Virus record (IMG/VR): IMGVR_UViG_2930337131_000001
Span: 64,054-128,053 of that record
DNA length: 64,000 nucleotides
Source of the DNA: a virus
Taxonomy: Duplodnaviria > Caudoviricetes
Direction: 5' to 3' (one strand)
The notes under the pieces are model-generated. The model searched no databases. It saw only the letters and a list, made by a program, of their open reading frames with translations, and was not told where the DNA came from. How positions within the stretch are numbered: the stretch's first letter is position 1; the number at the start of each line of letters is the position of its first letter. Made by a program: the position numbers and the translations under genes. Shown piece after piece: positions 33,186 to 63,920 of this stretch.

Positions 33186-33454
33186 CTGAGGTGGTCGCAC
33201 GACTACCGCGGAGACGCGTTCGAGGCTCCGGTCAAGGGTTCTTGGGACTGACAACACACCTCTAGTTCAGATGGGAGTGTTCCTCTTCCCGTGGTCGCCC
33301 TTGATCACACAGGAGTCGATTAACCGGGTGCGTGTAGAGCACTCGGGGCCGGGGAGCGGATGCTCCTGCGACGAACCGGCCTCGTCCTTCGCGACCGTGC
33401 GGCCGCCTCGCCTTGTCTCAGCAGGCACCACCCAGGGACCGAGAGCACGGCCCT
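33186..33454 (+). ncRNA. Candidate structured RNA / long 5' leader
   Basis: Nested complementary segments: TCAAGGG/CCCTTGA, GGGA/TCCC, AACAC/GTGTT, CCGGGTGC/GCACTCGG, GGAGC/GCTCC, GACGA/TCGTC, GGTCGC/GCGACC and CTGAG/CTCAG. Confidence 0.4.
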
Positions 33455-33479
33455 ACCCGAACCGGAGGAACACTCGCCC

Positions 33480-34301
33480 ATGAGCATCGCGCAGAAGGTC
33501 GCCGCCGAGACCGGATACCTGTCCCGGATGTCCGATGAGACGTTCATGGACGTCGTCGTCGCCTACGTCATGGGGGACACGGACCCGCGCGTACACCGGG
33601 CCGTCCAGGGCGAGGCACTCGGATCGCCGCGGCTCGCATCCCGCACTCTCGACGCCCTCGAGACCGCCCTGCGCCGCGCGCGGCAGTACAACCCCCTCCA
33701 GGAGGGCGAGACCAAGCGGGAGCAGCAGGCCCGCATCGCGCCGTGGCGGGCGAGGATCCAGGCCGCGATGGGCCCGCTCCAGGACGTCGTCGACGACCTG
33801 GCCCACGAGCACGCGAAGCAGTTGGCCGCCCTCGACGACGATTCGTTCACCGACCGGTTCACCGACTTCGTCCTCGGCGAGCCTGCCCCCGCGCCGACGT
33901 CCCAGCGGATTGAGGCTCTCGGCTTCCGGTCACACAGAGTGGCTAAGAGGGCGGCGGCACTCTGCCGCCTGATGGACGAGGACCCGGGCCAGTTCCTGCC
34001 CGAGCCCGCTCCGGGCGAGAGCCGCACCGCGCGGCAGAAGCGGGTCGAGGAGTTCCGCCGGCGCGTGGAGGCCGAGGCCGCGTTCCTGCGGTACGGCGTC
34101 CAGTACGCGGAGGCGCGCCAGGGCCGGATGCCCAGCGAACCGAACCACCGGCTGCAGGCGCTCAAGCTCCTCGGCCAGGCCCACCCCCAGGAGCTGCTCG
34201 AGCTCCTGCGCCGGGTCCGCGGCGAGGCCCGCGCCGCCAAGCAGGAAGCGCGCCGCGACGCCCGGGACGTTCGGCGCGCGGCCCAGACCGGCGCGCGCTG
34301 A
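33480..34301 (+). CDS. Hypothetical helical protein (273 aa)
   Basis: GGAGG RBS before ATG 33480; internal duplication (MSDETFMDVV / LDDDSFTDRF). Confidence 0.7.
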   Translation: MSIAQKVAAETGYLSRMSDETFMDVVVAYVMGDTDPRVHRAVQGEALGSPRLASRTLDALETALRRARQYNPLQEGETKREQQARIAPWRARIQAAMGPLQDVVDDLAHEHAKQLAALDDDSFTDRFTDFVLGEPAPAPTSQRIEALGFRSHRVAKRAAALCRLMDEDPGQFLPEPAPGESRTARQKRVEEFRRRVEAEAAFLRYGVQYAEARQGRMPSEPNHRLQALKLLGQAHPQELLELLRRVRGEARAAKQEARRDARDVRRAAQTGAR

Positions 34302-35074
34302 GGCGCGCTCCTGGCCGACCGCTCCACCTTCAAGGGCGCGCCCGATGGCGCGCCCTTCTCCATGTCCGGGCGCGCCTGGGCACCGCGCCGCGCGCGCGGA
34401 CTCGGCGCGGTCCTCGGCGCGCGGCCGGCCGGTGGGCGCGCCGCGCGCCACCTATCGCGCGGATGGGCGCGCGCGCTCGAGCGGTCAGGGGCGCGGTAGT
34501 CCTGCGCGCCGTTCCGGAGCCCGCGCGGGGCTCCCCCCGGGGCCGCGCTCGAGGGCGCGCCACGGCCAGGCGCGGGGCGCGCCCTCGAGAAAGGGCAGGT
34601 CAGATGGCGCGCGCCCTGGCGCGCTTGCTGTGGCGCGCGTGCGCGCGGTGGCCATGGCGCGGGCGCGCGGCGCGGTCGGATCGGGCGCGCGCGCGATCGT
34701 CAGGAGGGCGCGCGGCGCGGCGCGGGTATGGCGCGCGCTCACTGGATCGGCGCGCTTGGGCGCGCGCCCGGCGGCGCGCCTGGGTCCGCGCGCGCGGCGC
34801 GGTACGGGATGGCGCGCGCTCCCTCTGGGCGCGCCTGGGCGCGCGCGGATCGGCGCGCTTGGGGAGCGGCGCGGGCGCGCCTGGCAGGCGCGCCCAGGGG
34901 AAGGCGCGCAGTGCCTGGGCGCGCGCTTGGGGGAGGGACGGCGCGGCGCGCGGGCGCGCCTCGAGGTGATGTGACGTGACGAGAGAAGGGGGAGCGGCGC
35001 GCGCCGTGGAAGCGCGCCCGAGGGGGCCGGGCGCGCGTCACGTCACGTCACGTCACTGTCCGGCGGGCGCGCCC
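34273..35074. repeat. Non-coding GCGCGC-dense array
   Basis: About 40 GCGCGC-containing blocks by hand count in ~800 bp between convergent genes, with GTGAC/GTCAC pentamer repeats at the right end. Confidence 0.8.
34332..34357. terminator. Perfect 11-bp stem-loop
   Basis: AAGGGCGCGCC-cgat-GGCGCGCCCTT. Confidence 0.55.
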
Positions 35075-36768
35075 TCGAAGTACGGCGCGAACCGCCTGGC
35101 GAGCTTCGGGTCGACCGGCGGGGCCTTCCGGTAGTACTCGGCGAGCTCCGTCTCTCCAGCCGCCTCGAGGTACTCGACGAGTCCCGGGCGGTGGCCGAGG
35201 ACGTAGTTCCGCAGCTCGGGCAGCTCCGGGTCGCCGGTCTCGGAGATCGGCCCCAGGTGCTCACCCTTAGTCATCATCAGGAGTCGGGCCTGAACCTCGG
35301 CCTCCTCGTACAGGGCCTTGAATGCGAGCTCCTCGCCCCTGTTCCTCCGGGAGGCCGGACGCGCGGCGGCGGGGGGCGGGACGTCCTGGGGCTCCTCGGC
35401 CTGGCTGGTCTCCTCCGGGTTCTCGTCGATCGGGGGCTCCTCGTGCTCCGGGTCCGGCGGCGGGGGCGCGGAGTCGTACTCGGCCGGCGGCTCCGGCTCC
35501 TCGTGGGCCTGGTGCTCGCGGGCCTGCTCCGGCCGCTGGTCCTGCGGGGCCGGGGCGGTGCTCGGTGCCTGCTGGGGCGGCTGGGTTCCCTGCCCGGCGG
35601 CGGCCGCCTCCGCCTTCTTCTTGGCCTGCTCCCTGACTGCGGTCAGGGCGCGGGTGATCAGGGCGTCGGCGTTCATCTCCCCCCACAGCTTCGTGCGGGT
35701 GGGAATCCGCTCGAGGGTCCGCTTGCCCCACGTCTCGCGGATGTCGACCAGGCGCGCCTCCGGATCGGTCGGGTCGTTGAGCGCCTGGTGCACGAGACTG
35801 ACGGCCCCCTGGCCGGTGAGCTCGGATGACTGGGGCGCATGCTGCTGGGGCTGGGCTCCCTGCTGGGGCGGGCGCTGCTGAGACTGGTTCGGCCCCTGCT
35901 GCCGCTGGTTCTGCTGCTGCGGCGGCCGCTCCCCCTGCTCGTCCAGGTACGCGTCCGGCCGGGTCTCGGTGACCTGGCGGGTGGCGGCGGCCTCGTGGAA
36001 ACCCATGCGGCGGAGCAGGCTGTCGATGCTGAAGTCCCGGTACCGCTCCGTCTCGCCGGGCTTCATCTCCCAGTGCAGCGTGCGGACCCCCGTCAGGTAG
36101 GCGTCGCCCAGGCCGTGCAGTTCCACGATGGCGTCGACGGCGGCCGGAAGGTTCTTCTCGGCCTTGATCTTTCGGGTGGTGTTCCGGGTGGGCTTGTCGT
36201 TCTCGAACGCGGTCACGATCTCCTGGCGGGCGATCATCACCACGGGGCCGGAGTGCCGGCGGAGCAGCCACAGGAACTCGCCCCACCGGTCCTTCGCCCG
36301 GTTCCACAGGTCGGCGTCGATGACGACCGGGTCGTCCAGCGAGGGCCCGCGGCGCTTGTTCTCCTGCGCCTTCCGCACGGCGCGGCGGCGCGCGTACAGG
36401 GCCTGCTCGTCGCCGAGCATCTCCCACAGGTTCGAGCCGTTGTCGACGACGATCATGTTGGGCTTACCGTCGACACGGGGCTGCGCGACGATCCAGCGGA
36501 CGGCGTCGAGGATGTCCTGATAGGTGCCGTCGTGCTCGACGATCTCGTACCGGGCCCCGGGGATCTTGCCGTAGTAGTCCGCGGTGCCCTCGGACCCACC
36601 GATCTCGAGCCAGTACGTCATGCCGATGAGGTCGGAGCGCGAGCCGACAGCGGCCTCGTAGCTCTTGCCGCACTTCTCGGGCCCGCACAGCAGGATGAAC
36701 GGCGGGTTGGGGAGGCAAGTCGGCTTCCGGGACGTACGGGCGCGCTGCGGCGCGGTGATACCAGGCAT
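35053..36768 (-). CDS. Sak4/AAA_24-like ATPase (recombination/annealing) with long Gln/Pro-rich extension
   Basis: Walker A GPEKCGKS, Walker B MIVVDN and VVMIAR; GAGG RBS. Confidence 0.7.
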   Translation of the reverse strand: MPGITAPQRARTSRKPTCLPNPPFILLCGPEKCGKSYEAAVGSRSDLIGMTYWLEIGGSEGTADYYGKIPGARYEIVEHDGTYQDILDAVRWIVAQPRVDGKPNMIVVDNGSNLWEMLGDEQALYARRRAVRKAQENKRRGPSLDDPVVIDADLWNRAKDRWGEFLWLLRRHSGPVVMIARQEIVTAFENDKPTRNTTRKIKAEKNLPAAVDAIVELHGLGDAYLTGVRTLHWEMKPGETERYRDFSIDSLLRRMGFHEAAATRQVTETRPDAYLDEQGERPPQQQNQRQQGPNQSQQRPPQQGAQPQQHAPQSSELTGQGAVSLVHQALNDPTDPEARLVDIRETWGKRTLERIPTRTKLWGEMNADALITRALTAVREQAKKKAEAAAAGQGTQPPQQAPSTAPAPQDQRPEQAREHQAHEEPEPPAEYDSAPPPPDPEHEEPPIDENPEETSQAEEPQDVPPPAAARPASRRNRGEELAFKALYEEAEVQARLLMMTKGEHLGPISETGDPELPELRNYVLGHRPGLVEYLEAAGETELAEYYRKAPPVDPKLARRFAPYFEGAPAGQ

Positions 36769-36885
36769 CGGTGTTCCTCGCTTCGTGGTCTCCCCGGGTG
36801 CTCTCCCGCGGAGGATGCAACGGCGAAGGGGTTAACCTCTCGCCGTTGTCCCTGGCTTACTATTCTACCCGCTTGGTGGGGTAGA

Positions 36886-37299
36886 TCAATGCCGGTTCAG
36901 CAGATCCGCGACGGGAGTTGCAAGTTTCGGGTCCTGGTCCTCGCGGTGCCGCTTATACCAGGCGTCGAGGGCCTCGAGCCCGTCGGCCGCGGCCGCCTTC
37001 TGGTCCTCGGGCATGGCTTCCCACTCGGCGACTGCGTCCTCGTACTCGCCGCGGACCGTGTCCGGGTCCTGGCGATTGAGGGCCTCCGTGATCTCCTGCC
37101 ATGAGGCGCCGCCCAGGGCCTCGGCGAGGACGACGCGGTCGACGATCTCGTTGGCCAACTGGCGAAGCCGGCGGGCTTGCAGGATGCGGTCGGCCGGGCT
37201 GGTGGTCTCGGCGGTGGTCGCGACTGTCTGCCGGGCGAGGTCGGACAGGTCGCGGGCTGCGCGGGCGGTGGTGATCCGGGCCAGGATCTCCGGTTCCAT
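36886..37299 (-). CDS. Hypothetical protein (HTH-like GASWQEITEALN)
   Basis: 137-aa ORF with typical codon bias. Confidence 0.6.
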   Translation of the reverse strand: MEPEILARITTARAARDLSDLARQTVATTAETTSPADRILQARRLRQLANEIVDRVVLAEALGGASWQEITEALNRQDPDTVRGEYEDAVAEWEAMPEDQKAAAADGLEALDAWYKRHREDQDPKLATPVADLLNRH

Positions 37300-37377
37300 G
37301 GAAGGGTCCGATCATGCGGGCGGCGGGCGCCCCAGGTCGGGGGCCCGCCGCTTCGGTACGGGTAGAGGCAGGATGCC

Positions 37378-38619
37378 TTACGAGCCGGTTGCCGTCAGCG
37401 CCTGGTCGAACGCAGCGAAGACAGCATCGACGGTCGCGGGCTGCGGGAGGAGGACCCCCTTCTGCGCGGCGTACTCCTTGATGATGCGGCCGCGTGTCCT
37501 GCGGCCGCTCCCTTCGTGCTGGCCGAGGACCTCCGCAATCGCGGCGCCGGTCAAAGGCCCGTCGAAGACGTCGCGGTGTCCACCGTCGATGACCTCGGCG
37601 ATGATCGCGCGCAGCTCCTCCTCCGTGCTCCACGCGGGGACCACGTACGGCTGGGGCGCGCCCTGCGCCTCTCCGGCCGGGGCGGCGGGTGCGGGCTCCG
37701 GCGCGGCCATCGGCTCGAGAGCCATGGTCGGCTGCGCGGGAACGGTGGCCGTGACCCGGCGCGGCTTCGGGGCAGCGGCCGGAGCGACCGCGGCCGGAGC
37801 CGGTGCGAGAGCTGCAGCGGGCGGGAGCACCGGGGCCGCGGCGGGGGCCGGAGCCTCGAGCGCCTCGACCTCGACCGGCTCAGCGAAGATGCCCGTGGGG
37901 TCGATGCCCGCCGCGCGCAGACCGGCCGCGGCCGTCTCCGCGAGGGGGACGCCGGCGCTGACGAGCTGCAGCGGGAGCAGCGAAGCCACTGGCGCCTTCC
38001 GGCGCCAGGCTCGACCGAACCGGCCGCGGAGCTGCGCCTGGTAGACGAGTCGCTCCTGCTCGAGCTTGAGGACCGTGTCGTACGAGGTGAGTTCCCACAG
38101 CTTCATGCGGCGCCACAGCAGGAAGGTGGGCAGCGGAGAGAGGACCCAGCGCGCCCACCGAACCTTGTCCATCTGACGGCGGCGGCCGGTGGCAGCGCCG
38201 ATACGGACGGCGTAGGTGTGCGTAGCGATCTCGGAGACGATGACCCAGAGCAGGGCCATCGCTCCGTGCGCGATCTTGGACCAGAGGGATTCGCCGGACG
38301 CGACGTTCAACGCGCAGGACGTCAGGCTCAGCACCCAGGGGACGAGCCGCGCCCACCACAGCGGCATCCCCGTGCGGATCAGGAACAGGTGGGCCCCGGT
38401 GAACACGGGGATAGCGGAGTCGATGGCGGTGGGCAGGACCCACGGCTCGGTGAAACCCCAGTCTTCGGCTGCTTTGGACACGGCGTCGAATGATGCGAAG
38501 AAGCCCAGTCCGCCGACGGCGGCTCCGCCAACTGCGGTCAGGCCCGCGCCGAAGCGCTCCCAACGGCTGAGCGGCGGGACGCCGGAGTCGTCCTCGCGGG
38601 TATGGGGGAACTGGCTCAC
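37378..38619 (-). CDS. DUF2637-family membrane protein (Streptomyces plasmid/AICE spread-associated type)
   Basis: Four TM helices, then RWARWVLSPLPTFLLWRRMKLWELTSY, an Ala/Pro linker and a C-terminal HTH. Confidence 0.75.
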   Translation of the reverse strand: MSQFPHTREDDSGVPPLSRWERFGAGLTAVGGAAVGGLGFFASFDAVSKAAEDWGFTEPWVLPTAIDSAIPVFTGAHLFLIRTGMPLWWARLVPWVLSLTSCALNVASGESLWSKIAHGAMALLWVIVSEIATHTYAVRIGAATGRRRQMDKVRWARWVLSPLPTFLLWRRMKLWELTSYDTVLKLEQERLVYQAQLRGRFGRAWRRKAPVASLLPLQLVSAGVPLAETAAAGLRAAGIDPTGIFAEPVEVEALEAPAPAAAPVLPPAAALAPAPAAVAPAAAPKPRRVTATVPAQPTMALEPMAAPEPAPAAPAGEAQGAPQPYVVPAWSTEEELRAIIAEVIDGGHRDVFDGPLTGAAIAEVLGQHEGSGRRTRGRIIKEYAAQKGVLLPQPATVDAVFAAFDQALTATGS

Positions 38620-38771
38620 GGACACCTTTCCTCTCGTTCGGGTCTCCCCGGTCGGCTTATGCTCGTGGCCTTCCGGGTCGACCAAACGATATAGCGTCTT
38701 CCGCCTGTTGTGCCTGAATCAGTTCCCACAGTGCGTCAGGGACGCGGTCATACCGGGTGTTTTGGGGCCGG

Positions 38772-39611
38772 TCACCAGTCGAGGGGCTCCGCCGGCTTCC
38801 GCCGGTCGGGGCCGACGATCCGAGCGACGTGCGCGGAGGACTCGAGCCGGGACAGCAGCCGCTCCCCCAGGATGTCGACCACGCCCAGGCCCGGACTGTC
38901 GGGCGTCCGGCGGCTGCGCAGGTTCGTGGTGTACGCCGTGGGCCGCCCGGCCGAGATGCGGGCGTCGATCAGGTCGATGGTCTCCCGCCGTGCGAACTCC
39001 GTGGCGGTCATGTCCATCTCTCCGCACAGTTCGTCGAGGATCAGCAGCTCGCACGTTACGAACTTCTTGCGGACCTCCCACGCCTTCAAGTTGTGCGGGG
39101 CCGAGTCCGGGCGTCGCCACGTCAGGTACGTCGCGTGCTTGATCATCAGGGTGTCCACGCCCGCGATGACGGCCTCGTTGCCCAGGGCGAACGCCGCGGC
39201 GGTCTTCCCGCTGCCGATGTTCCCCGGGATGATCATGTTCAGGGTCTCCGGGCGGGAGCCGGACCGCTTCGCCTCCACCAGGGAGTGAAGCCAGTTCTGC
39301 AGGGTCTGCGGCTTCTGGTTCTTGTCCAGCTTGAGGGGGCCGGTGGTGAACCGGAAGCCGAGGTACTCCTGGTGGGCCGCGTCCTCGACGCTCCGCTCCC
39401 ATGCGAGTCGTCGCGCGTGAGCCTTCGGCACGGCCGTGTCCTCCCAGAGCTCTATCTCTGATCTGTCGGTGCGGCGGTCGGGGACGCCGAGCTGGGACAT
39501 GTCGGCGCCACCGCGGCGCAGGATCGCGAACATGTGGTCGGTCACGGCGCCTGCCAGGTTCAGGCCGCGCTCGGGGCCCGGGGTCACCGGGGCATCCACC
39601 GTGAGGGACAT
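38772..39611 (-). CDS. DnaC/IstB-like ATPase (helicase loader)
   Basis: GNIGSGKT, LLILDELCGE, AYTTN and GERLLSRL motifs. Confidence 0.8.
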   Translation of the reverse strand: MSLTVDAPVTPGPERGLNLAGAVTDHMFAILRRGGADMSQLGVPDRRTDRSEIELWEDTAVPKAHARRLAWERSVEDAAHQEYLGFRFTTGPLKLDKNQKPQTLQNWLHSLVEAKRSGSRPETLNMIIPGNIGSGKTAAAFALGNEAVIAGVDTLMIKHATYLTWRRPDSAPHNLKAWEVRKKFVTCELLILDELCGEMDMTATEFARRETIDLIDARISAGRPTAYTTNLRSRRTPDSPGLGVVDILGERLLSRLESSAHVARIVGPDRRKPAEPLDW

Positions 39612-39616
39612 CGAGA

Positions 39617-40612
39617 TCACACTCCCTGCGTGCGGTTGACCACGCCGAACGTGGCGTCGTCGGAGTCGTCGTGTTCGGGGGCTTCGGGGGTGCCGGGTGG
39701 GGTCTCGCCCTGCTTGCCCCAGGTCGCCGAGTCGCTGTACGGAACGGCGCCGTTGGAGCGGGTCGGGGTGATGTGGTTGGTGACGACGCCCAGGGCGTCC
39801 TGCCACTGCTGCGCGCTGGGCAGGTGCTTACGCGCGCGGCGGAGGGCGTCCGCGCACTGGCGCTGCGTGTAGCCCGCTTCCAGGGCCTTCTTCACCATGC
39901 CGCGCATAGCGATGTAGCCGTTGGTCTTGCCGACGTACTTGCCCAGGTGCTTCTCAGCGTCCGCCCACCACCACGTGGCGACCTTCTCGGCCGCTTCGTC
40001 GATGGCCTTCTTCTCCGCGGCCTTCTTGTCCGCCGCGGCCTGCTTCTCCGCGTCGTCGGCGGCCTTCTGCTCCGGGGTCCGGCGGGTGCGCCGCTTGGGG
40101 GCGGCCGGCGGCTCCTCGGCGGCCGCGGGCTCCTCCTCCGGGGCAGGGGGCTCCTCGTCGCGGGGGTCGGGCTCGAACCCGTCGCTGCCCAGGGTGCCGT
40201 CCGGGTACTCGACGAGGAACGTGCCGTCCTCCTGCTCGATGACGGGGACGGCCGGGTCCTTCTGCGAGCTGAAGATGGCGTGGTCGGCGGCCCACTGGGG
40301 AACGGGGTACTCGGCGACTGACGTGCCCATCACGACCTTGCCGGTGCGCAGACGGCGGCGCTCGAGGCGGTAATACCCCTTCGCGGCGAGCTCGCGCAGC
40401 GCGGTACGGACGGCCTCGCGGCCCTCCCGACCCTCGCCCTTGGAGAGCTGGTCGGAGCGGACCTGCCACCCCTCCTTCTGGTCCAACAGGTAGGTGAGCA
40501 GGCCGAGGGCGCGGAAGCTGATGCTCGTGTCCCGGGCGGTCGTTGACTCGACTCGCACGTGGTAGACGCGCCGGGCGACCCGCACCCCTGTGGGATCGGA
40601 CAGGCGGCTCAT
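39617..40612 (-). CDS. Phage replication initiator (N-terminal wHTH)
   Basis: ISFRALGLLTYLL...GREAVRTALRELAAKGY; upstream of the loader gene. Confidence 0.75.
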   Translation of the reverse strand: MSRLSDPTGVRVARRVYHVRVESTTARDTSISFRALGLLTYLLDQKEGWQVRSDQLSKGEGREGREAVRTALRELAAKGYYRLERRRLRTGKVVMGTSVAEYPVPQWAADHAIFSSQKDPAVPVIEQEDGTFLVEYPDGTLGSDGFEPDPRDEEPPAPEEEPAAAEEPPAAPKRRTRRTPEQKAADDAEKQAAADKKAAEKKAIDEAAEKVATWWWADAEKHLGKYVGKTNGYIAMRGMVKKALEAGYTQRQCADALRRARKHLPSAQQWQDALGVVTNHITPTRSNGAVPYSDSATWGKQGETPPGTPEAPEHDDSDDATFGVVNRTQGV

Positions 40613-40887
40613 GCGGATGCCTCGCTGGGGGTGTCGTTGGTCAGGCGGAAGTCGGTGCGCTTGGAGCGGCGGCCGGACTCGTTGCTCAGGTAGCGGTACC
40701 GGCGCTCGGCCATGCCCGCGTTGCGCAACTCGGTGACGGCGCTGCGGACCTGGTGGGAGTTCAGGCCCAGGCCGGTGTAGATGGACGCGAGGTCGACCCA
40801 CTCGCCGTCGGGGTGGAGGGCGAGCTGGAAGAGAACACGGTGCGCGCGGTCGGACAGGCGCCGGGGGCGGGTCTGCGTGGTGGTCAT
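40609..40887 (-). CDS. Small winged-HTH protein
   Basis: LSDRAHRVLFQL...LGLNSHQVRSAVTELRNAGMAER. Confidence 0.65.
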   Translation of the reverse strand: MTTTQTRPRRLSDRAHRVLFQLALHPDGEWVDLASIYTGLGLNSHQVRSAVTELRNAGMAERRYRYLSNESGRRSKRTDFRLTNDTPSEASA

Positions 40888-40946
40888 GGTGCTGGTCCCT
40901 GGGAAGAGGGGCCCGGCCGCGAGGGGCCGGACCCGGGCGGCTGTCG

Positions 40947-41552
40947 TCACTCGTCGCGCGCGCCGGGCTGCGCCTTGGGCAGCAGCTCCGGCGTCTCCCG
41001 CAGTTCGTCGTCGAGGTCACCGCGCCGGTAGGCGGCCAGCAGAGCGGCCTTGCCTATCGGCTGCTTCTTGAAGGTCTTCCAGGTCCAGGTGACGGTGCCG
41101 GTGGGCTTCCCGCCCGGCACGAACTTGAGACCGGGGATGAGCTCACCGGACCGCGAGTCGAAGATGGCGCCCGTCTCTGGGTCGCGCTGGGCGTGCCGGA
41201 GAACGGCCGTCTCGAACGACTTCTTCCGGACGATGACGACGTCGTACTCGCCCTTCTCCTCCGCGTACTCGTCGAACGCGGCTTCGTCGGCGATCTCGAA
41301 CCGGTCGCGGGTCTTGTTGACCTTGTAGTGACCGACCTCTTCGCCGCCGACGGTGATGGTGAGGTCCGACTGCTTACGCTCGAGGAACGCCTGGACGAGG
41401 GGGTCCTTCGGGGCGTTCACCTTCGGGGTGATTATCGCCGCCTGGTGTTCCGTCATGGCGCGGGCGATTGCCCCGACGAGCCCGAGAGTATGCAGGTCAG
41501 GCCCGGAGTCCGACTCATCGGCCGGGACGGCGTCGGCAACGTCGTGCGACAT
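40947..41552 (-). CDS. Hypothetical phage protein
   Basis: GAGAGG RBS; DPETGAIF...GELIPGL motif common in phage DNA-metabolism proteins. Confidence 0.7.
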   Translation of the reverse strand: MSHDVADAVPADESDSGPDLHTLGLVGAIARAMTEHQAAIITPKVNAPKDPLVQAFLERKQSDLTITVGGEEVGHYKVNKTRDRFEIADEAAFDEYAEEKGEYDVVIVRKKSFETAVLRHAQRDPETGAIFDSRSGELIPGLKFVPGGKPTGTVTWTWKTFKKQPIGKAALLAAYRRGDLDDELRETPELLPKAQPGARDE

Positions 41553-41735
41553 CTCGGTGTTCCTCTCTTTCCCCGGACGCCTGGCCCAGGGTTCTGGTCC
41601 TCCCGGGCTGGTGTTCGGGGCGCGTCACCTTGGGGTACGTCGCCGGCCGATTTTTGTTACACCTAGGCCCAGGTAGCTGGGTTGCTCTCCCAACTGAGCC
41701 GAATAGTACACCCAGGGCAACGCGATGTGGAGCGC

Positions 41736-41764
41736 GCGACACAAGCGCCTCGTCCGTCTACCTT
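41736..41764 (+). promoter_or_regulatory. Late-promoter motif
   Basis: GCGACA-N17-TACCTT (CGCGACACAAGC). Confidence 0.55.
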
Positions 41765-41982
41765 CCTCGCGGCTCTGCAGCATCCGGCGACGTCACCGGG
41801 AGCAGCAGGGCCCCGGCTCCGCCCCATCCGGAACGAGGGCGGAACCGGCCCGGCGGCAGGTGAGGGTCGGCCATGACGGCATCGTCCCGCTTGCGAGGCG
41901 GGGCGCCGCGGTAGGAGTCCGCGGGCTCGCAGCCCTCACCCGCTGCCGGACACCGACCGCATGGGAGAGGAACGCACCAGCC

Positions 41983-42615
41983 GTGACCGAGACGATCGCC
42001 GCGCCGCGCTACATCGCGTACGTGCCGCTCACCGACCTGTCCCCCGCGCCCCGAAACCCGAAGCGGCACGAGCTCGAGCTGATCATCGCGTCGATCGACA
42101 TGCACGGCCTGGTCGAGATACCCGTCGTCGACGAGCGGACCCAGCAGACCCTCCACGGCCACGGCCGGCGCGAGTCCCTGCTGGAGATGCAGAACCGCGG
42201 GATGCGCGTCCCGAGCGGTGTCGTCGTCGACGAAGACGGGGGCTGGCTGGTCCCTATCCTGCGCGGCTGGCACTCGAGGAACGACGCCGAGGCGGAGGCC
42301 TTGGCCATCAAGCTCAACCGGCTGCCCGGCGAGGGCGGATGGGACCCCCGCGAGCTCGCCGAGATCCTCGAGGACCTGGCGACGAACGAGGTGGAGCTGT
42401 TCGACTCCCTGGCCATTCCCCACGACGAGATCGACAAGATGCTCGGCCAGGTCGACCCGGAGACGTTGCCCGGCGGCGGCCGCGAGGACGAGACGCCCCT
42501 GCTCCACCTGCCCGACGACGGAGAGCGCGGCGACGGACTCAGCCCCGACGACGAGGGCCGCGCACCGCACACGACGTGCCCGGCCTGCGGGCACCTGTTC
42601 ACCTCCAGCCGCTGA
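41983..42615 (+). CDS. ParB/Srx N-terminal-domain protein with C-terminal Zn ribbon
   Basis: LSPAPRNPKRH...SIDMHG...PVVD...HGHGR; CPACGH. Confidence 0.75.
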   Translation: MTETIAAPRYIAYVPLTDLSPAPRNPKRHELELIIASIDMHGLVEIPVVDERTQQTLHGHGRRESLLEMQNRGMRVPSGVVVDEDGGWLVPILRGWHSRNDAEAEALAIKLNRLPGEGGWDPRELAEILEDLATNEVELFDSLAIPHDEIDKMLGQVDPETLPGGGREDETPLLHLPDDGERGDGLSPDDEGRAPHTTCPACGHLFTSSR

Positions 42616-42635
42616 CCGCCTCCCGAGGAACGCCC

Positions 42636-43280
42636 ATGTCCACCCGACGCAAGGCACGCCGGCCCGAGGGCCGCAGCGGTCGCCCACGCCTGCTCTCCGA
42701 AGAGGTCGAGTCCCGTCTCGTCGCGGCCTCCCGCACGGGCGTAGCCGTCGAGCTGGCTGCCGAGATGGCCGGCATCTCTCGCTCCACGTTCCTGGCGTGG
42801 ATGGCCCGCGGCCGCGCCGAGGTCGACGCCCGTGAGGAAGGCAAGAAGCCCGACCCGGCCGAGGAGGAGTACGCGGCCCTGTTCGAGAAGGTCCGCACCG
42901 CCCGTGCCACCGCGGGCGCGCGCGCCATGATGAACATTCGCAGGATCGCGGACGGCGGCATCGTCACCAAGATCACCACCCGCAAGTTCCGCGACTCTGT
43001 CACCGGCGAGATCGTCGAGGAGACCGTCGAGGACCGCACGCCCCCGGACTGGCGCGCTGACGCCTGGTACCTCGAGCGGCAACACCGCGACGCCTACGGC
43101 AAGGACGCGACGCTCGCCCTCGAAATCACCGGCCTCGGTGACGTCCCGGCCGGCGCGGACGACGGGGCCGTCGACCTGGCCGCGCTCGCCGAACGCCTGG
43201 ACCGCAGCCTGTTCTCGGTCGAGTACCCGCCGGAGCTCGAGGACGGCAGCGTCGTTGACGCCGAGGTGGTCGACGAGTGA
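42636..43280 (+). CDS. Terminase small subunit-like HTH protein
   Basis: GRPRLL...AAEMAGISRSTFLAW...DWRADAWYLER. Confidence 0.6.
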   Translation: MSTRRKARRPEGRSGRPRLLSEEVESRLVAASRTGVAVELAAEMAGISRSTFLAWMARGRAEVDAREEGKKPDPAEEEYAALFEKVRTARATAGARAMMNIRRIADGGIVTKITTRKFRDSVTGEIVEETVEDRTPPDWRADAWYLERQHRDAYGKDATLALEITGLGDVPAGADDGAVDLAALAERLDRSLFSVEYPPELEDGSVVDAEVVDE

Positions 43281-46807: not shown

Positions 46808-47193
46808 GGCTGGTGGTCCTTCGCCCTGCGCTGTATCACCTCGGCCATGGCCGCGGCGAGGTTCTGCAGGCGGTCGGGGGTGATCTCCTCGATGTCGGAG
46901 ACCACGAGCTCGCCACCGCCGGGCAGGGCGATCTCCTCGCGGTGGAGGCTCACGTCCTCCAGGCCGTCGTCGGTGCCGGCGTCGTCGCGGGTCTCAAGCG
47001 GGTTCAAGGTCCGCATGAAGGCCGCCATCATCGCGTCGTGCGTCTGCTTGATCCGCTCGGGGCTCCGTGTGTGGCCCGGGGCCAGGGCTCCCGCGGCCGC
47101 CATCGCGCGGCGCGTCTCGATGTCGTGAGGGACTGGGCCGCCCTCGAGCGCACGTTCCAGGCGCTCGGCTTCCCTGTCAGCGCGTCCGAACAT
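46804..47193 (-). CDS. Putative anti-sigma factor (resembles the RsbN N-terminal domain)
   Basis: Overlaps the sigma gene 3' end; REAERLERALEG...AAAGAL...HDAMMAAF. Confidence 0.45.
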   Translation of the reverse strand: MFGRADREAERLERALEGGPVPHDIETRRAMAAAGALAPGHTRSPERIKQTHDAMMAAFMRTLNPLETRDDAGTDDGLEDVSLHREEIALPGGGELVVSDIEEITPDRLQNLAAAMAEVIQRRAKDHQP

Positions 47194-47881: not shown

Positions 47882-48113
47882 GTGCCGTCTGGGCGCCCGA
47901 CGTGCGGGTCCGAGGACTCAGAACACCCAACCCGGTACAGGAGGATCGTCTTCCGCTGTGGCGCTCAGGAAGCATAACCGGCCACTCTCCGGGCGTCACC
48001 GTACGGATGTGCGATGTTCGATTGCCCTGGGCTTACTGTAATCTCGCCGTTGCAGGCGAGCGTCGCGGAGAGCACCGCGGCGGGAGCCAGACCTAAAGAG
48101 AAGGAGCACCCCC

Positions 48114-48374
48114 GTGATCACGCCGCCCGCAGTTGACCAGCCGTCCCACATCGACCTGGCCCTGATGCGGTTCCCCCACCAGCAGTGGATCCCGGCGCCG
48201 GCCGCGGCCGCGCACGTGGAGAACGTGGGACTACCTCGTGAAATCCTCCGGCTGGTGATCCGCACCGGCAAACGCCGTGGTGTCCTACGTATCAAGCGCG
48301 TGCCCGACCACGTCGGGTTCTACGTGATGAGGGTCTCCAAGATGCACCCCGATGAGGTCACGGCCACGGCCTGA
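48114..48374 (+). CDS. Small hypothetical protein (possible wHTH)
   Basis: AAGGAG RBS; divergent from the sigma gene. Confidence 0.55.
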   Translation: MITPPAVDQPSHIDLALMRFPHQQWIPAPAAAAHVENVGLPREILRLVIRTGKRRGVLRIKRVPDHVGFYVMRVSKMHPDEVTATA

Positions 48375-53282: not shown

Positions 53283-54539
53283 GTGTCCACTGACGACCTC
53301 ATAGACCTGTTCACCACCATCCCCCTCTGGGTGGTGGTCGCGGTCCGTACCTACTACTGGCCCAAGACCCCGGGGAAGCGGGCGATCCTCGCCACCTTCA
53401 CCGCCCTCACCGTCGGCGCCACCCTGCGACTCGCTTTCATCGACGACGCCCTGGCCCGCCTGTTCCACTTCAAGGACGCGGCCGTCCTGCCCAAGCACCT
53501 GTGCGTGATGCTCGCCAGCATCCTCCTGGTGGGCTGGCTCAAGTCGGTCGTCCCACCCCGTGACAAAGAGCCTGCCTGGCTCCGCTGGATCGACTTCAAG
53601 CCCCGCATGGTCTTCGTGGCCGTCATGAGCATCGCGGCCTCCGCCGTCTTCCCGTACGTCCGGCCCTCGATCACCGCGCCCGACGGCTCCCCCGACTTCG
53701 CCTCCGCCCAGTACGGCGACGTCGCCGGCACCGTGCACCTGGCCGCCTACCTCCTGACCATGGGTGTGGCCCTGGCCCCCTCCGCGGTGCTCTGCCTCAC
53801 CGTGGCCAGGCGCACCGATGACCGCCTCCTGCGCGTCTGCATGCGCCTCATGGCCGCGGGCGCGGCCGCGGGTGCCTTCTACCCGGTGTACCGGATCGCG
53901 TTCCTGATCTGCGGGTTCACGCACTGGACGTTCCCGCTGAACGAGGCCGAGTTCCACCGCGGCGGGTCGCTCATCCAGCTCGTGACCATCCTGTTCATCA
54001 TCGTCGGCAGCTCCGTGCGCGCCGTGGAGATCGTCCTCCGCGCGGTCCGTATGCGCCGGGCCCTGATCGACCTCCGCCCCCTGTGGGCCGAGCTCGTCTC
54101 CGTCCTCCCGCCGGACGTCATCAAGCGCCGCTTTCAGGAGCCGACGGGCGCCCTGGCCGACCGCTACACCTTCACCGACCTGTACGGCCGCCTGGACGCC
54201 CGCATCGTCGACATCTCCGACGCCGCGTTCGAGCTGCTCCCGTGGGTCGAGGAGGACCTCCCCGGCCGGGCGCTCGAGGAAGCCCGCACGGCCGGCCTCT
54301 CCGGCGGGGAGGCCGAGGCAGCAAAGCAGGCCCTGTGCCTGCGCGTCGCCCGCCAGCGGGCCGTCGACGGCGAGCCCCACGCTAGGACCCCCGCCGTATC
54401 TCTGCTGTCCCTGCGCGACGACCTGGCGTCGAACACCCGATGGCTGGCCCGGGTCGCCCGCCACTACGCCTCGCCCGCATTCGACGACGCGGCCAACCGC
54501 CTCGCCGGACACCTCGTTCTCCAGGAAGCCACCGCATGA
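53283..54539 (+). CDS. MAB_1171c-family multi-pass membrane protein with C-terminal cytoplasmic (DUF6545-like) domain
   Basis: About 7 TM helices, then LRPLWAELVSVLP...RIVDISDA...WLARVAR; follows the XRE and peptidase genes. Confidence 0.75.
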   Translation: MSTDDLIDLFTTIPLWVVVAVRTYYWPKTPGKRAILATFTALTVGATLRLAFIDDALARLFHFKDAAVLPKHLCVMLASILLVGWLKSVVPPRDKEPAWLRWIDFKPRMVFVAVMSIAASAVFPYVRPSITAPDGSPDFASAQYGDVAGTVHLAAYLLTMGVALAPSAVLCLTVARRTDDRLLRVCMRLMAAGAAAGAFYPVYRIAFLICGFTHWTFPLNEAEFHRGGSLIQLVTILFIIVGSSVRAVEIVLRAVRMRRALIDLRPLWAELVSVLPPDVIKRRFQEPTGALADRYTFTDLYGRLDARIVDISDAAFELLPWVEEDLPGRALEEARTAGLSGGEAEAAKQALCLRVARQRAVDGEPHARTPAVSLLSLRDDLASNTRWLARVARHYASPAFDDAANRLAGHLVLQEATA

Positions 54540-55153
54540 GCAGCACCACCGCACCCGCCCCGGCCCCCGTCGAGAACCGGGCCGCCCGGCTCATCACCGA
54601 CCGCGCCGAGCCCCGCAACGTCATCATCCTGGTGTCCCTGGGCGTCGGCCTCGCCCAGGACAACCCGCTCACCGGCGCGCTGTGGGCGCTCGAGGCCATC
54701 CTGTTCGCCGCGGCGATCCCCATGGCGTACATCAAGAAGGGGATGCGCGCGGGGAAGTGGGCCGACCGGCACGTCGGCCAGGTTCAGCGCCGCACCCTGC
54801 TGATACCCGTCATCATGGCGTCCGTCGCCACCGGCATCGGCGCCATGCTCGTCTTCCACGCCCCCCGCGCGATGCTCGCCCTGGTCCTCGCGATGCTCGC
54901 CACCCTCGCCGTGCTCCTGGTCCCCACCGCCGTGTGGAAGTGGAAGATCAGCGTGCACACCGCGGTCGCCGGCGGAGCCCTGGCGATGCTCGCCCTCACC
55001 TGGGGCCCGCTGGTCTGGCTCGCCTACCCGCTGCTGGCCATCCTCGCCTGGTCCCGCATCAGCCTGCGTGACCACACCCTCGCCCAGACCATCGCAGGCG
55101 CGGCCGCGGGCACCATCACGGCGGGCCTGGTCTTCGCCGCCCTCACCGCATGA
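54536..55153 (+). CDS. PAP2-superfamily membrane phosphatase
   Basis: KISVH and WSRISLRDHTLAQ motifs; multi-TM; ATGA overlap. Confidence 0.7.
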   Translation: MSSTTAPAPAPVENRAARLITDRAEPRNVIILVSLGVGLAQDNPLTGALWALEAILFAAAIPMAYIKKGMRAGKWADRHVGQVQRRTLLIPVIMASVATGIGAMLVFHAPRAMLALVLAMLATLAVLLVPTAVWKWKISVHTAVAGGALAMLALTWGPLVWLAYPLLAILAWSRISLRDHTLAQTIAGAAAGTITAGLVFAALTA

Positions 55154-55166
55154 CGTAAGGCGCACC

Positions 55167-55892
55167 GTGTCTGTACTCCTCCCGGCCATGCAGACGTCTT
55201 CCGCACCCGTAGCCCCGACCGCCCGCCACCTCGCCGTCATCGCCGACGGCAACCGCCGGTGGGCGGCCGCCAACGGTCACACCGTCGAACACGGCTTCCG
55301 TCAGGGCGCGGCCGTCGTCCACCAGGTCCTCGACCACTGCCGCGCCCGCGGCCTCGAGGTCGCGTCCGTGTTCCTCATGTCCGACCGGAACTTCGGCCGC
55401 GCCGAGGCCGAGGTGCAGATCCTCACCGACGTGATGGTCGACATCCTGGAGAAGGAGACCGCCGCGACGACCGGCCCGATCCGTGTCCTGCGCCAGTTCT
55501 CCGGCAACTACCTGATCCCCGGCCGGCTCCTGGCCGCCATCGACCGCGCGGAGCAGGCCACGGCCGACCGGACGGGGATGACCGTCTGCCTGGGCATCGG
55601 CTACGACGGCCGCGCCGACATCCGCCAGGCCGTCGCCCACGCCCTCTACGCGCCGGACTACGACGAGCGCGAGGAACTGCCCGTCGAGCGGTACCTGTCC
55701 ACCGCGGGACTGCCCGACCCCGACGTGGTCATCCGCACCAGCGGCGAGCGCCGCCTGTCCGGATTCCTGCTCTACCAGGCCGCGGACGCCACCCTGCACT
55801 TCGATGACCGGTACTGGCCCGAGTACAACGCCGACGCGGTCGAGGAGGCCCTCGCCGTGCACGCGGTACAGAACCTCACGTACGGCCGCTGA
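55167..55892 (+). CDS. cis-prenyltransferase (UppS family)
   Basis: HLAVIADGNRRWA, SDRNFGR, GYDGR and DPDVVIRTSGERRLSGFLLYQ motifs. Confidence 0.9.
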   Translation: MSVLLPAMQTSSAPVAPTARHLAVIADGNRRWAAANGHTVEHGFRQGAAVVHQVLDHCRARGLEVASVFLMSDRNFGRAEAEVQILTDVMVDILEKETAATTGPIRVLRQFSGNYLIPGRLLAAIDRAEQATADRTGMTVCLGIGYDGRADIRQAVAHALYAPDYDEREELPVERYLSTAGLPDPDVVIRTSGERRLSGFLLYQAADATLHFDDRYWPEYNADAVEEALAVHAVQNLTYGR

Positions 55893-56030: not shown

Positions 56031-56873
56031 ATGAAGACACCCACAACTGATCTCGAGTGGATCCGGGCAGGCACGTTGCCGCTCCCCCGGCCCGACGAGA
56101 CACGCATCATCGTGATGTGCAATCAGAAGGGCGGCGTCGGTAAGACGACGACGACCATCAACCTCGCCGGGGCTCTCGCCTTCTACGGCAAGAGAGTCCT
56201 GATCGTGGACGGCGACCCCTCCGGCAACGCCTCGGACGCCTACAAGGTCGAGATGCTCGACGAGGACGAAGGCGACACGCAGACGAAGTGCATCCTCGAA
56301 GGGAAGGACCCCCACGACCTGGTGGCCAGGCCGTTCGAGAACATCCACGTTCTGCCGGCCAGCCCGGACATGCAGTTCCTCGCCCCGCGCCTGCGCGAGC
56401 AGGGCGATGCACTGCACGCCTACCGCCACATGCTGGACTTCTTCCGGGGTGAGTACGACTACATCCTCGAGGACACCCGGCCGGCCGTCGACACAGACAC
56501 CAACTCGATGACCGCGGCCGCGGACGCTGCGGTCACCATGGTCGACGTCGACCGCTGGGCGATGAAGGCCGTCGGTACCCAGCTCGCCCAGCACGAAAAG
56601 ATCATGAAGCAGCTCCGGCGCGACGACTTCCTCGAACTGGGCCTGGTCATCAGCACTGCCAAGATGAGCGGCGGCGACTTCGACAAAGCGGTCCTCAAGA
56701 ACCTGCACAACCACCCCATGCTGCCGGTCCTGTCCGAGGTTCCGTACCGCGGCGCAGACCTCAAGGAAGCCCGCGCCATGGGCCAGCCCGTACAGATGTA
56801 CCGTCCGAAGTCCGACACGGCGGGCTTCTTCCGAAACGTCGCAGTCAAGTCAGGGCTGGTGGAGGCAGCGTGA
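56031..56873 (+). CDS. parA: ParA/Soj partition ATPase
   Basis: NQKGGVGKTTT, LIVDGDPSGN and YDYILEDTRP motifs. Confidence 0.9.
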   Translation: MKTPTTDLEWIRAGTLPLPRPDETRIIVMCNQKGGVGKTTTTINLAGALAFYGKRVLIVDGDPSGNASDAYKVEMLDEDEGDTQTKCILEGKDPHDLVARPFENIHVLPASPDMQFLAPRLREQGDALHAYRHMLDFFRGEYDYILEDTRPAVDTDTNSMTAAADAAVTMVDVDRWAMKAVGTQLAQHEKIMKQLRRDDFLELGLVISTAKMSGGDFDKAVLKNLHNHPMLPVLSEVPYRGADLKEARAMGQPVQMYRPKSDTAGFFRNVAVKSGLVEAA

Positions 56874-61895: not shown

Positions 61896-61922
61896 GGCGG
61901 TGCCTTCCTGGGCAGGTGGTGG

Positions 61923-62917: not shown

Positions 62918-63370
62918 TCAGAACAGGCCGGACTGTCCGGCGGCCTCGAGCTCCTGGCGCGCCGTCTCGGTGGCCTTCTCGGCCTCCTGGCGGCGGAGCT
63001 GCGCGACGAGCGGGGCCTGGCGCTGCGCCTCGGCCGTCTTGCGGGCCTGCAGCTCCGCGGACGTCGCCCAGCGCGTCATCACCTCGTGGTCGGCGAGCTC
63101 GGGCACGTCACCGAGCGCGGTGCACCTGACGTGCGGGCTCTCGAGACGGCCGGTGACCTCGGCGAGGGTCCGGAGCCAGTTCGGGCCGTACGCGCCGACG
63201 ATGACGACGAGCGTCCCGGCCGCGTCGAAGCCCTGCCGCAGGGAGAACCCGTCGGCCGCGTGCTGGTCGGGCCCGCCGGCCTTCTGCTCGTAGACGTCAA
63301 GGCCGAGGTCGACCAGCCCGCCCTCGACGAGATGGCGGCGGATCGTGGACGTGCGCGTGGCTCGAGACAT
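62918..63370 (-). CDS. Hypothetical protein ending in QSGLF
   Basis: GAGG RBS; C-terminus resembles a clamp-binding motif. Confidence 0.6.
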   Translation of the reverse strand: MSRATRTSTIRRHLVEGGLVDLGLDVYEQKAGGPDQHAADGFSLRQGFDAAGTLVVIVGAYGPNWLRTLAEVTGRLESPHVRCTALGDVPELADHEVMTRWATSAELQARKTAEAQRQAPLVAQLRRQEAEKATETARQELEAAGQSGLF

Positions 63371-63504
63371 GGGTGTCCTCGCTTCGTGGTCTGGGCCGGT
63401 GCTCTCCGGCCCGGGGCGGTGCGCCCTGCTCCTGCGCCGGGTGGGCCGGTTCAGGGGCGGAGCGCACCGCCCGCCGTGGGGTGGCGGGCGATGCTGGGGG
63501 CGGG

Positions 63505-63831
63505 CTACGCCAGGGCGACGGTGACCAGGACGTCGGAGAAGTACGTGTCGGGGTGCTCGCCGTCGTTGATCTCGAGGCCCTGGAACTCCCAGTCCGCGGC
63601 GATGTCCGCGGCGAGCTCGGCGCGGCCCTTGCGCAGCGCGTCACCGTGGCTGACGGCCTCCACGGAGAACCAGTCGAGACCGGAGTCACGCAGCGACACC
63701 CACGCGGCGTTGGAGTTGTCGCCGACGCGGACGGCCTCCGGCAGGATGCGGCGGATCTCGAACCCGGCGACGGGGCGGTCGGTGTAGACGACGGTGAAGC
63801 TGCGCAGGGTCTTGTGCAGGGTCAGGGACAT
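63505..63831 (-). CDS. Hypothetical protein
   Basis: GAGG RBS after an AGAGCA hairpin leader. Confidence 0.6.
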   Translation of the reverse strand: MSLTLHKTLRSFTVVYTDRPVAGFEIRRILPEAVRVGDNSNAAWVSLRDSGLDWFSVEAVSHGDALRKGRAELAADIAADWEFQGLEINDGEHPDTYFSDVLVTVALA

Positions 63832-63920
63832 GGGGTTCCTCACTTCGTGGTGGGGGGCCGGTGCTCTCCGGCCCCGGGGGTGGGGCGCCCACGGCGGGCG
63901 CCCCTGGGGAGCTGCCGCGG

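Follow-up and report, generated by a model that had tools for sequence, protein, structure and literature searches.

A 64,000-nucleotide (nt) stretch of viral DNA, referred to here as the window (bases 64054-128053, the right half, of the single-contig Streptomyces phage genome IMGVR_UViG_2930337131_000001, 128,053 bp, ~70% G+C), carries six hairpins built around the loop AGAGCA. They belong to a genome-wide set of 19 copies of a ~56-nt cassette, all of which (19/19) lie on the sense strand upstream of an open reading frame (ORF). We propose, with a probability of roughly 0.45, that the hairpin is an RNA operator read by a trans-acting factor, which would co-regulate translation and/or stability across a non-structural, presumed early regulon. 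A trans-acting mRNA operator is suggested by the combination of an invariant loop on a stem of free sequence, a fold on the sense strand, fusion to the Shine-Dalgarno (SD) sequence and ATG, the presence of 19 copies and the absence of the element from host genes.

Architecture of the leader cassette

The cassette consists, in this order, of a GC-rich variable stem with the loop AGAGCA, (G)ACCACGAA, an extended SD stretch (GAGGAACACC) and ATG. Its consensus was derived from 37 aligned copies: 19 of the present phage and 18 of Gilgamesh, a Streptomyces phage with the host S. lividans (MN234216; 129,136 bp) and the closest named relative, with a match that covers 83% of a 16-kb test stretch at ~80% identity. 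It comprises a stem of 7-9 pairs (the top two mainly G-C), the loop AGAGCA, a spacer of 2-6 nt and a 3' part that reads (G)ACCACGAA(G/C), 1-2 nt, (G/A)AGGA(A/G)CACC, 0-3 nt and ATG. The linker is A/C-rich, the SD stretch is extended, and the hairpin ends 10-20 nt before the SD sequence; save for one mismatch, GAAGcGAGG could base-pair with the 3' end of 16S rRNA, ...CACCUCCUUU, as read from a Streptomyces genome. The distance from loop end to start codon is 27-39 nt in 18/19 copies (counting an upstream ORF, or uORF, before the FtsK-like gene described below) and 130 nt in one, and the start codon is ATG in 16/19.

Of the 18 occurrences of the box ACCACGAA in the genome, 14 come directly after such a hairpin, and other phage genes have different SD contexts; the gene set comes from a GC-frame caller and is crude, hence the counts of SD context here and of accessibility below are approximate. 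As the box mostly follows these hairpins and the SD contexts of other genes differ, hairpin, box and SD (56 nt) are best regarded as one unit. A covariance model built on the 37-copy alignment recovers the 19 training copies at 20.5-65.8 bits, with everything else in the genome at or below 16.3 bits. The match at 16.3 bits, a hairpin without the remainder of the cassette at genome position 1503(-), lies in a coding region, is not conserved in Gilgamesh and was discarded as a chance occurrence.

The GenBank annotation of Gilgamesh served as an independent guide to gene calls and starts. Fourteen of its 18 cassette-predicted starts are identical to the annotated ones, and the loop-to-start distance is 31-39 nt in 16/18, with 131 nt at gene 83 and 47 nt at gene 93 (anchor not checked). 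For gene 137 (DNA methylase) the annotation places the start at 118223, within the hairpin region; the ATG predicted from the cassette is 45 nt further downstream, at 118268, and the annotated start is probably wrong. For genes 93 and 83, annotated and predicted starts differ by 3 and 30 nt, respectively.

Enrichment, folding and selection

The bare hexamer AGAGCA is not enriched in the window (21 found, 19.9 expected). When the loop is required to be exactly 6 nt long and the stem to have at least 3 pairs, the window alone shows a modest excess of hairpins (6, where 100 shuffles average 1.44 and reach 5 at most), in a count that takes in a coding-region site at 38247 (CCC/GGG) and leaves out the 7-nt-loop site at 41683; with stems of at least 6 pairs it holds 3 against 0.18 in shuffles. 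The whole 128-kb genome is decisive, with 12 such stems of at least 6 pairs against a mean of 0.08 (maximum 2, 50 shuffles), which disposes of the concern, raised in a previous sequence-only reading of the window, that the pattern might occur at background frequency. Among 667 hexaloop hairpins with stems of at least 6 pairs AGAGCA is the commonest loop (12 copies), the next unrelated loop reaching 6; its reverse complement TGCTCT, representing the identical sites on the opposite strand, appears 11 times in this census. The site at 38247-38252(+) has a 3-bp stem and no box, lies in coding sequence antisense to the local genes and was rejected as chance.

Stem sequences differ between copies, and the earlier impression that pairing is nevertheless retained is borne out by covariation. 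Across the 37 copies, 79.5% of cells pair against 57.2% in shuffled alignments, and double-change cells number 66 against 27.5; the observed values were reached in 0/500 shuffles, and slid registers drop to ~40% pairing. A further 62 distinct copies from relatives give 85.5% against 60.0%, in an alignment that was model-fitted and is therefore biased towards structure. Loops in the 98 unique copies are AGAGCA (70), AGAGCAA (16), CGAGCAT (6), AGAGCAG (3), AGAGCG (2) and CGAGCA (1), which makes the loop 6 nt long in 73/98 and 7 nt in 25/98.

Selection was assessed on 17 orthologous leader pairs of this phage and Gilgamesh. Identity is 101/102 in the loop, 88% in each stem arm, 85% in linker, box and SD, 79% in the upstream flank and 71% in the downstream coding sequence. 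Strong purifying selection thus acts on the loop, the most constrained part, and the stems diverge through compensatory changes, as in CGCGG/CCGCG of the window copy at 48061 versus CGAG/CTCG in Gilgamesh.

The strand of the fold is indicated by the mismatches. At the seven inner pairs of the 98 unique copies, Watson-Crick pairing is seen 602 times, G-U pairing 42 times, an A-C mismatch 10 times and some other combination 32 times; because G-U exceed A-C four-fold, the fold forms on the sense strand, either as mRNA or as non-template DNA. We infer that the element acts as RNA rather than as non-template single-stranded DNA.

The sequence-only reading had offered a hairpin-type DNA promoter as one option, and a role at the DNA level, be it as an N4-like extruded hairpin promoter or as a site for a DNA-binding protein or recombinase, now appears very unlikely. 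N4 virion-RNA-polymerase promoters do share a conserved loop, a variable stem and a position upstream of early genes with the cassette; moreover, the virion module of the phage contains a 3,998-aa ORF, two tyrosine integrases are also encoded, and a cassette that follows a GC hairpin could begin a new transcript. The N4 promoters, however, are hairpins of the template strand, whereas the G-T versus A-C asymmetry places the cassette fold on the sense strand, with a loop of 6-7 nt. Seven copies already stand behind a promoter-like motif (see below), and the close link to SD and ATG is a feature of mRNA. The core GGAGAGCACC is not palindromic, so it does not represent a site for a symmetric dimer. 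The giant ORF was considered as a candidate N4-like virion polymerase and set aside, since sequence searches of Pfam, PHROG and PDB gave no match and showed no polymerase signature. Window positions 39-5507(+) are the C-terminal part of this ORF (L185:64-12057), which abounds in acidic low-complexity repeats; its Gilgamesh counterpart is gene 48, a hypothetical protein of ~4,600 aa. An integron attC-like recombination site was also rejected, since the arms do not fit the core-site pattern and the SD link argues against it.

Copies in the window

All six hairpins listed by the sequence-only reading are present at the coordinates and strands it gave, each on the sense strand and upstream of an ORF with gene-typical codon-position GC, as had been claimed for their place in 5' leaders. 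Each folds into a single hairpin; the folding energies lie between -8.5 and -18 kcal/mol, and the z-scores relative to shuffled sequence between -2.6 and -4.2. The loop, described as invariant, is AGAGCA in five of the six, and the copy at 41675-41695(-) has the 7-nt loop AGAGCAA. The descriptions of two further hairpins needed correction, for a bulged A in the copy at 33434 and for a stem that can be extended with one mismatch in the copy at 36795. Three copies (36795-, 63393- and 63854-) are followed by ACCACGAAGYGAGGA, as reported.

The first cassette (33434-33482(+), 43.1 bits) has its hairpin at 33434-33454, with the loop at 33442-33447, a variant box ACCCGAAC and the SD GGAGGA before the ATG (33480-33482) of a 273-aa ORF (33480-34301); the orthologous leader in Gilgamesh, upstream of gene 76, shows compensatory stem changes. 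The second (36766-36814(-), 56.4 bits) has its hairpin at 36795-36808, extendable to ~36790-36813, the box ACCACGAA at 36782-36789 and the SD GAGGA, and leads from the ATG at 36768-36766 into a 571-aa AAA-ATPase-like ORF (35053-36768). The third copy (41675-41695(-), 20.5 bits) has no ACCACGAA box and opens a ~150-nt leader; the ATG of its 201-aa Mu Gam-like ORF (40947-41552) stands at 41552, 130 nt downstream, and the leader is almost identical in Gilgamesh.

The fourth cassette (48061-48116(+), 42.2 bits; hairpin 48061-48082) has a linker devoid of the ACCACGAA box, the SD AAGGAG and a GTG start (48114-48116) of an 86-aa ORF; its Gilgamesh ortholog before gene 93 carries a compensatory change from C-G to A-U and the loop AGAGCAA. 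The fifth (63368-63412(-), 53.2 bits) consists of a hairpin at 63393-63412 with a strong GC hairpin directly upstream, the box at 63383-63390, the SD GAGGA and the ATG (63370-63368) of a 150-aa ORF. The sixth (63829-63875(-), 56.1 bits) is similarly composed of a hairpin (63854-63875) preceded by a GC hairpin 5 nt upstream, the box at 63844-63851, the SD GAGGA and the ATG (63831-63829) of a 108-aa ORF. A scan for intrinsic terminators flagged none of the six hairpins; they have no T-tract, and the stems are followed by (G)ACCAC.

Distribution in phages and hosts

A scan of relatives with the covariance model, proposed as a check by the sequence-only reading, found further copies, and the element is conserved at orthologous genes. 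Four IMG/VR relatives of 126, 113, 126 and 29 kb, two of them classed as proviruses, were picked up as multi-copy contigs by an exact-pattern scan and hold 19, 15, 18 and 10 copies, respectively, by the model. An unrelated 194-kb contig has a single weak match, and among 22 single-match loci rechecked with the model only 2 (L032 and L016, both IMG/VR fragments) contain true cassettes.

The pattern scan of bacterial genomes returned at least 120 stretches. Among the matches listed, multi-copy occurrences are restricted to Streptomyces contigs of 124-126 kb (two such), and single matches fall on Streptomyces contigs of 86-135 kb and on scattered unrelated taxa, as chance predicts. In the lysogen-like S. 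glaucus JCM 6922, for which 150 of ~12,000 first-look candidates were scored, 17 strong matches all lie on one 125.6-kb contig and 3 weak ones (23-24 bits) elsewhere. An origin of the motif in the host was rejected on these grounds, the listed multi-copy matches being only on Streptomyces contigs of 124-126 kb and only 2/22 single loci being true. By this distribution the element is private to the phage/phage-plasmid lineage and not used by host genes, and a phage-encoded reader or direct ribosome contact would therefore be favoured.

Many Streptomyces assemblies hold the element as a contig of its own of 124-135 kb (loci L065, L067, L075, L082, L097 and L134, and the list of homologs of the 125-aa protein discussed below), and one homologous contig is labelled a plasmid. 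The phage also has a ParA gene (window 56031-56870) and a ParB-like gene. The separate contigs, the plasmid label and the ParA/ParB-like genes suggest a phage-plasmid lifestyle.

A sister lineage represented by two IMG/VR contigs of ~98 kb (L195 and L197) has no AGAGCA cassettes. In a 20-kb portion of each contig, 11 and 17 promoters, respectively, conform to TTGCGTGTAGCTACAC-N8-10-TAGTCTGTAGCTACA, every one with two copies of a 10-bp palindrome, and their leaders are composed of a G-rich stem, an ACGG-type loop, an A/C-rich linker, SD and ATG, in the same layout as the AGAGCA cassette. If the loop is read by a dedicated factor, the ACGG-type loop after TGTAGCTACA-type promoters in this sister lineage would suggest that matching pairs of loop and reader have diverged between lineages.

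No Rfam 15 model describes the AGAGCA element: none matches anywhere in the window at gathering score, and with the threshold relaxed to E<=1 for L004:800-16000, a stretch with 10 cassettes, the sole match is weak, unrelated (ASdes) and in coding sequence. ARAGORN found no tRNA in the window. A likeness to the tRNA D-arm (GTTGG..AGAGCA) was rejected, given this lack of tRNA and the fact that the upstream GCTC of the copy at 41675-41695 is not conserved in Gilgamesh.

Genes and promoter-like motifs linked to the cassette

Ten copies lie at genome 940-15,652, three at 35,160-42,817 and the six of the window at 97,495-127,915, and the virion module (~43 to 97 kb) has no copy. By the crude gene set, cassettes are confined to true intergenic gaps and absent inside runs of overlapping genes. 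Downstream ORFs include DpdA (7-deazaguanine DNA modification), a C5 DNA methylase, an FtsK-like translocase, an AAA-ATPase-like and a Mu Gam-like protein; the remaining ones are many small proteins with no assigned function. It is from this content (DpdA, DNA methylase, Gam-like, FtsK-like, AAA ATPase) that the regulon is presumed to be early. Among the sequencing runs listed for L004:700-10690 none is of RNA; one DNA run covers the stretch in full, possibly as the source of the sequence, and soil or rhizosphere runs account for small shares. The idea of an RNA recognition element that defines a regulon stands as far as a structured, strand-specific leader element with a gene set conserved in relatives is concerned.

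The DpdA gene (L004:16-909(-)) bears both the promoter-like motif described below and a cassette. Together with a PAPS-reductase-like gene (L004:1048-2145(-)) and one for a radical-SAM protein (L006:9764-10738(+)), it likely constitutes a 7-deazaguanine DNA-modification set. Before the FtsK-like gene (L005:15165-15280(-), genome ~35,065-35,180; Gilgamesh ~8,869-9,050) the cassette leads an 18-codon uORF, and in both phages the stop codon of this uORF shares bases with the SD and GTG start that follow for the FtsK-like protein (GAGGTGAcGTG); the arrangement looks like translational coupling via a leader peptide. Elsewhere, window 54536-55889(+) holds an undecaprenyl-diphosphate synthase gene (Prenyltransf, E=1.7e-49), with a weak match to PAP2 and a membrane protein of the DUF6545 family as neighbours; phages rarely carry such genes for the cell envelope.

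A 20-nt motif, TTGCC(C/T)NGGGTGTACTATTC, has seven occurrences and three looser variants in the genome, and all seven precede an AGAGCA-type hairpin, which begins 5-27 nt after the motif. In five of them the stem starts 5-8 nt past TACTAT, near the expected +1, and the other two (genome 8221+ and window 48061+) have a small additional hairpin in between. Two occurrences are in the window. One, TTGCCCTGGGTGTACTAT (41703-41720(-)), has its TACTAT end 7 nt before the hairpin of the third copy, and the other, TTGCCCTGGGCTTACTGT (48022-48039(+)), is followed by the small hairpin and then by the fourth copy; both are putative promoters. Further occurrences are at genome 966-, 4362-, 8185+, 10628+ and 15631+ (L004), and a variant is found at window 36846-36863(+). 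TTGCCC is only 6 nt from TACTAT, which is not canonical -35/-10 spacing, and the orthologous places in Gilgamesh read TTTCC-N3-GGTGTACTATTC. The motif may be a phage-specific promoter or operator.

The second copy (36795-) has a sigma-70-like TTGATC-16-TAGAAT on the same strand ~50 nt upstream. In most cases an internal copy comes 0-12 nt after a distinct, strong GC hairpin that has no T-tract. An ECF-type sigma factor (Sigma70_r2 + r4) is encoded at window 47177-47881(-), divergently from the promoter-like motif and cassette at 48022-48116.

This arrangement bears on two explanations other than a translational operator. The first, which we regard as unlikely, is nut-like processive antitermination, with the hairpin as a boxB and the linear box loading a phage factor and host Nus proteins onto RNA polymerase for read-through of the intergenic GC hairpins. 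Lambdoid nut sites are composed of a small boxB hairpin with a protein-read loop and a stem of free sequence, next to a linear box, in early leaders after early promoters. In agreement with this pattern, the cassette has a conserved loop on a variable stem, seven copies stand directly downstream of the promoter-like motif and internal copies come just after strong GC hairpins; the product of one cassette gene is a 125-aa protein whose N-terminal helix is rich in Arg, and the copy at 41675-41695 works far from any SD. On the other hand, known systems have one site per operon and ~2 copies of nut, against 19 per genome here, and boxB has a GNRA-like pentaloop, against 6-7 nt. Fixed placement of 18/19 copies 27-39 nt from a start and fusion to a conserved SD would be needless for an antitermination site. 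The linear box lies 3' of the hairpin and is unlike boxA; the first 5 columns of the 37-copy alignment, 5' of the stem, are variable and contain no conserved linear element. A likeness between the start of boxA and the reverse complement of the loop was considered but rejected, because every copy has the sense orientation and the G-U pairs mark that strand too. Termination at the upstream GC hairpins, which have no T-tracts, is itself putative, and the Arg-rich protein has no informative fold match. The fixed distance to SD and start together with 19 copies per genome is the reason why we favour a role in translation or stability over a nut-like one.

The second explanation, processing or 5'-end protection, also seems improbable. 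Early RNA would be cut just 5' of the hairpins, and a 5'-terminal hairpin would guard against 5'-end-dependent RNases, with the upstream GC hairpin guarding the preceding 3' end. The five promoter-proximal copies with a stem near the expected +1 are consistent with it, as are the internal copies just behind a GC hairpin, by which primary and processed RNAs would share the same 5' structure, and the copy at 41675-41695 fits as well. Escherichia coli ompA-type 5' stabilisers are comparable in that several cassette hairpins are at or near a predicted transcript 5' end. But such stabilisers have no loop-sequence requirement, and most cassette copies are internal to intergenic regions; protection needs the stem alone, which leaves the invariant loop and the conserved ACCACGAA box unexplained. 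At genome 8221+ and window 48061+, moreover, the AGAGCA hairpin is separated from the predicted +1 by a further small hairpin, and no nuclease candidate was found among the Pfam-scanned ORFs (see below).

Proposed mode of action and candidate readers

If the operator reading is correct, the AGAGCA hairpin would be the structured module of an mRNA leader cassette marking ~19 non-structural expression units. A trans-acting factor would read the single-stranded loop, the sequence of the stem being immaterial; it would most likely be a phage-encoded RNA-binding protein, the ribosome itself being a less likely reader. Given the 10-20 nt that separate the end of the hairpin from the SD sequence, a bound factor could set the rate of translation initiation and hence mRNA stability across the regulon jointly. 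Such a device could serve, for instance, to silence the regulon or to raise its output at some stage. Like known translational operators, the element is within reach of the 30S binding site. Both the existence of the trans factor and its effect on translation or stability are inferred.

We have searched for such a factor by scanning 121/150 crude-caller ORFs and the 3,998-aa ORF with Pfam. The scan revealed an ECF-type sigma factor, helix-turn-helix proteins, ParA, SSB and nucleotide-metabolism enzymes. Attention was also given to the Arg-rich 125-aa protein encoded by a cassette gene (L004:10685-11059). It has 72 homologs, nearly all in Streptomyces and many on contigs of 124-132 kb, and its AlphaFold2 model is confident, with a predicted local distance difference test (pLDDT) score of 88.6. 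A wide structure search gave a best Z of 5.5, to N-terminal domains of ParA-type partition proteins, which is within the noise range. Eleven distant-homolog loci (of 15 searched) contain only 2 weak covariance-model matches. The protein is thus a weak candidate for the reader.

Several observations weigh against the proposed operator. The copy at 41675-41695(-) is 130 nt from its start, has no box and sits beside the promoter-like motif; being far from an SD, it implies that the hairpin also, or instead, works promoter-proximally and independently of the SD, and since this copy can act alone near a 5' end, antitermination and processing stay alive as explanations. The G-T bias in the stems would be identical for non-template-strand DNA and for RNA. 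No known RNA-binding or antiterminator family was detected in the Pfam-scanned ORFs, and no trans factor was identified. The 125-aa protein has no Foldseek match in PDB at E<=0.001, and its homologs (35-45% identity) occur in viral contigs of 87-99 kb that have no AGAGCA cassettes, so there is no co-occurrence argument in its favour. Finally, the predicted accessibility of the ribosome-binding site is only marginally higher in cassette genes (0.49 vs 0.44; one-sided p=0.049 on the crude gene set).

This slightly higher accessibility would suit a purely cis-acting translation cassette, in which the hairpin would shield a strong SD and an unstructured, A/C-rich ribosome landing pad from structure further upstream, with loop or box perhaps touching the 30S subunit and with no regulator involved. 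The A/C-rich linker, the extended SD and the lack of a regulator among the Pfam-scanned ORFs point the same way. We nevertheless hold this explanation to be quite improbable: the gain in accessibility is marginal, and an insulator needs no fixed loop, yet the loop is the most conserved part of the cassette. Pairing of the loop with 16S rRNA, or mimicry of a 16S hairpin, was rejected, as the 16S rRNA of a Streptomyces host contains neither AGAGCA nor its complement.

Relation to known systems

The proposed trans-acting operator has partial counterparts among RNA elements that phage proteins read at or near the ribosome-binding site, such as the MS2 and PP7 coat-protein hairpins and the Mu Com site. 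T4 RegA controls many early mRNAs at once, through sites that are unstructured and poorly conserved. RegA and coat-protein operators resemble the cassette as RNA elements adjoining the ribosome-binding site; coat-protein operators, however, are single-copy and include the start codon, whereas the cassette hairpin is present in many copies and lies upstream of it.

The closest described feature appears to be the start-associated motifs named SAS and ESAS of cluster K mycobacteriophages, reported in 2011 (PMC3203893). According to the portions of that report that describe the motif, SAS is asymmetric, includes the SD sequence, lies a few nucleotides upstream of the start and has 11-19 copies per genome; it is found in the non-structural half only, in one orientation and preferably before ATG, about half of the copies have an inverted repeat just upstream, and it is conserved at orthologs and private to one cluster (PMC3203893). 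Gene-start placement, copy number, restriction to non-structural genes and preference for ATG are, as far as this description goes, common to SAS and the AGAGCA cassette. The two differ, within the same description, in their unrelated sequences, host genus and phage lineage: SAS is defined by the 13-bp GGGATAGGAGCCC with at most two mismatches, 3-7 bp before the start, where the cassette has GAGGAACACC. ESAS consists of 17-bp inverted repeats with conserved arms and a variable spacer, and its authors report, in the part concerned, that departures lend no support to RNA pairing and favour a DNA-binding protein (PMC3203893). Compared with ESAS so described, the AGAGCA cassette is the reverse, with an invariant loop in place of the spacer, arms that vary and covary, and G-U pairs that mark the sense strand. 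The function of SAS and ESAS was still undetermined as of 2025, according to the relevant part of PMC12699233.

Literature searches, which covered main texts, found no published description of the element. The AGAGCA cassette is a strongly supported structured leader motif that is apparently new to the literature, and the regulon it delineates is conserved across a widespread group of Streptomyces phage-plasmids.

Implications for actinophage biology

The cassette flags the non-structural, presumed early regulon of these widespread phage-plasmids and corrects gene starts, as in Gilgamesh gene 137. More speculatively, and with a probability that we would put well below even, the hairpin could be the operator of an unrecognised phage RNA-binding regulator, or else a direct ribosome-recruiting module, and would provide a private post-transcriptional channel for ~19 early genes of 125-kb phage-plasmids. 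The functions served by this channel would be DNA modification, end protection, replication and host takeover. The mechanism is directly testable, owing to many natural variants and to the cultivable Gilgamesh on S. lividans, and the cassette may be of use as a compact, context-independent expression leader for high-GC actinobacteria.

Start-associated repeats in actinophages have been known since 2011 with no mechanism found, and the AGAGCA cassette carries a clear signature of RNA structure. If the above reading is true, it would be the first RNA-structure-based regulon described in actinophages and would offer a tractable model for the unexplained start-associated motifs of the SAS/ESAS type.

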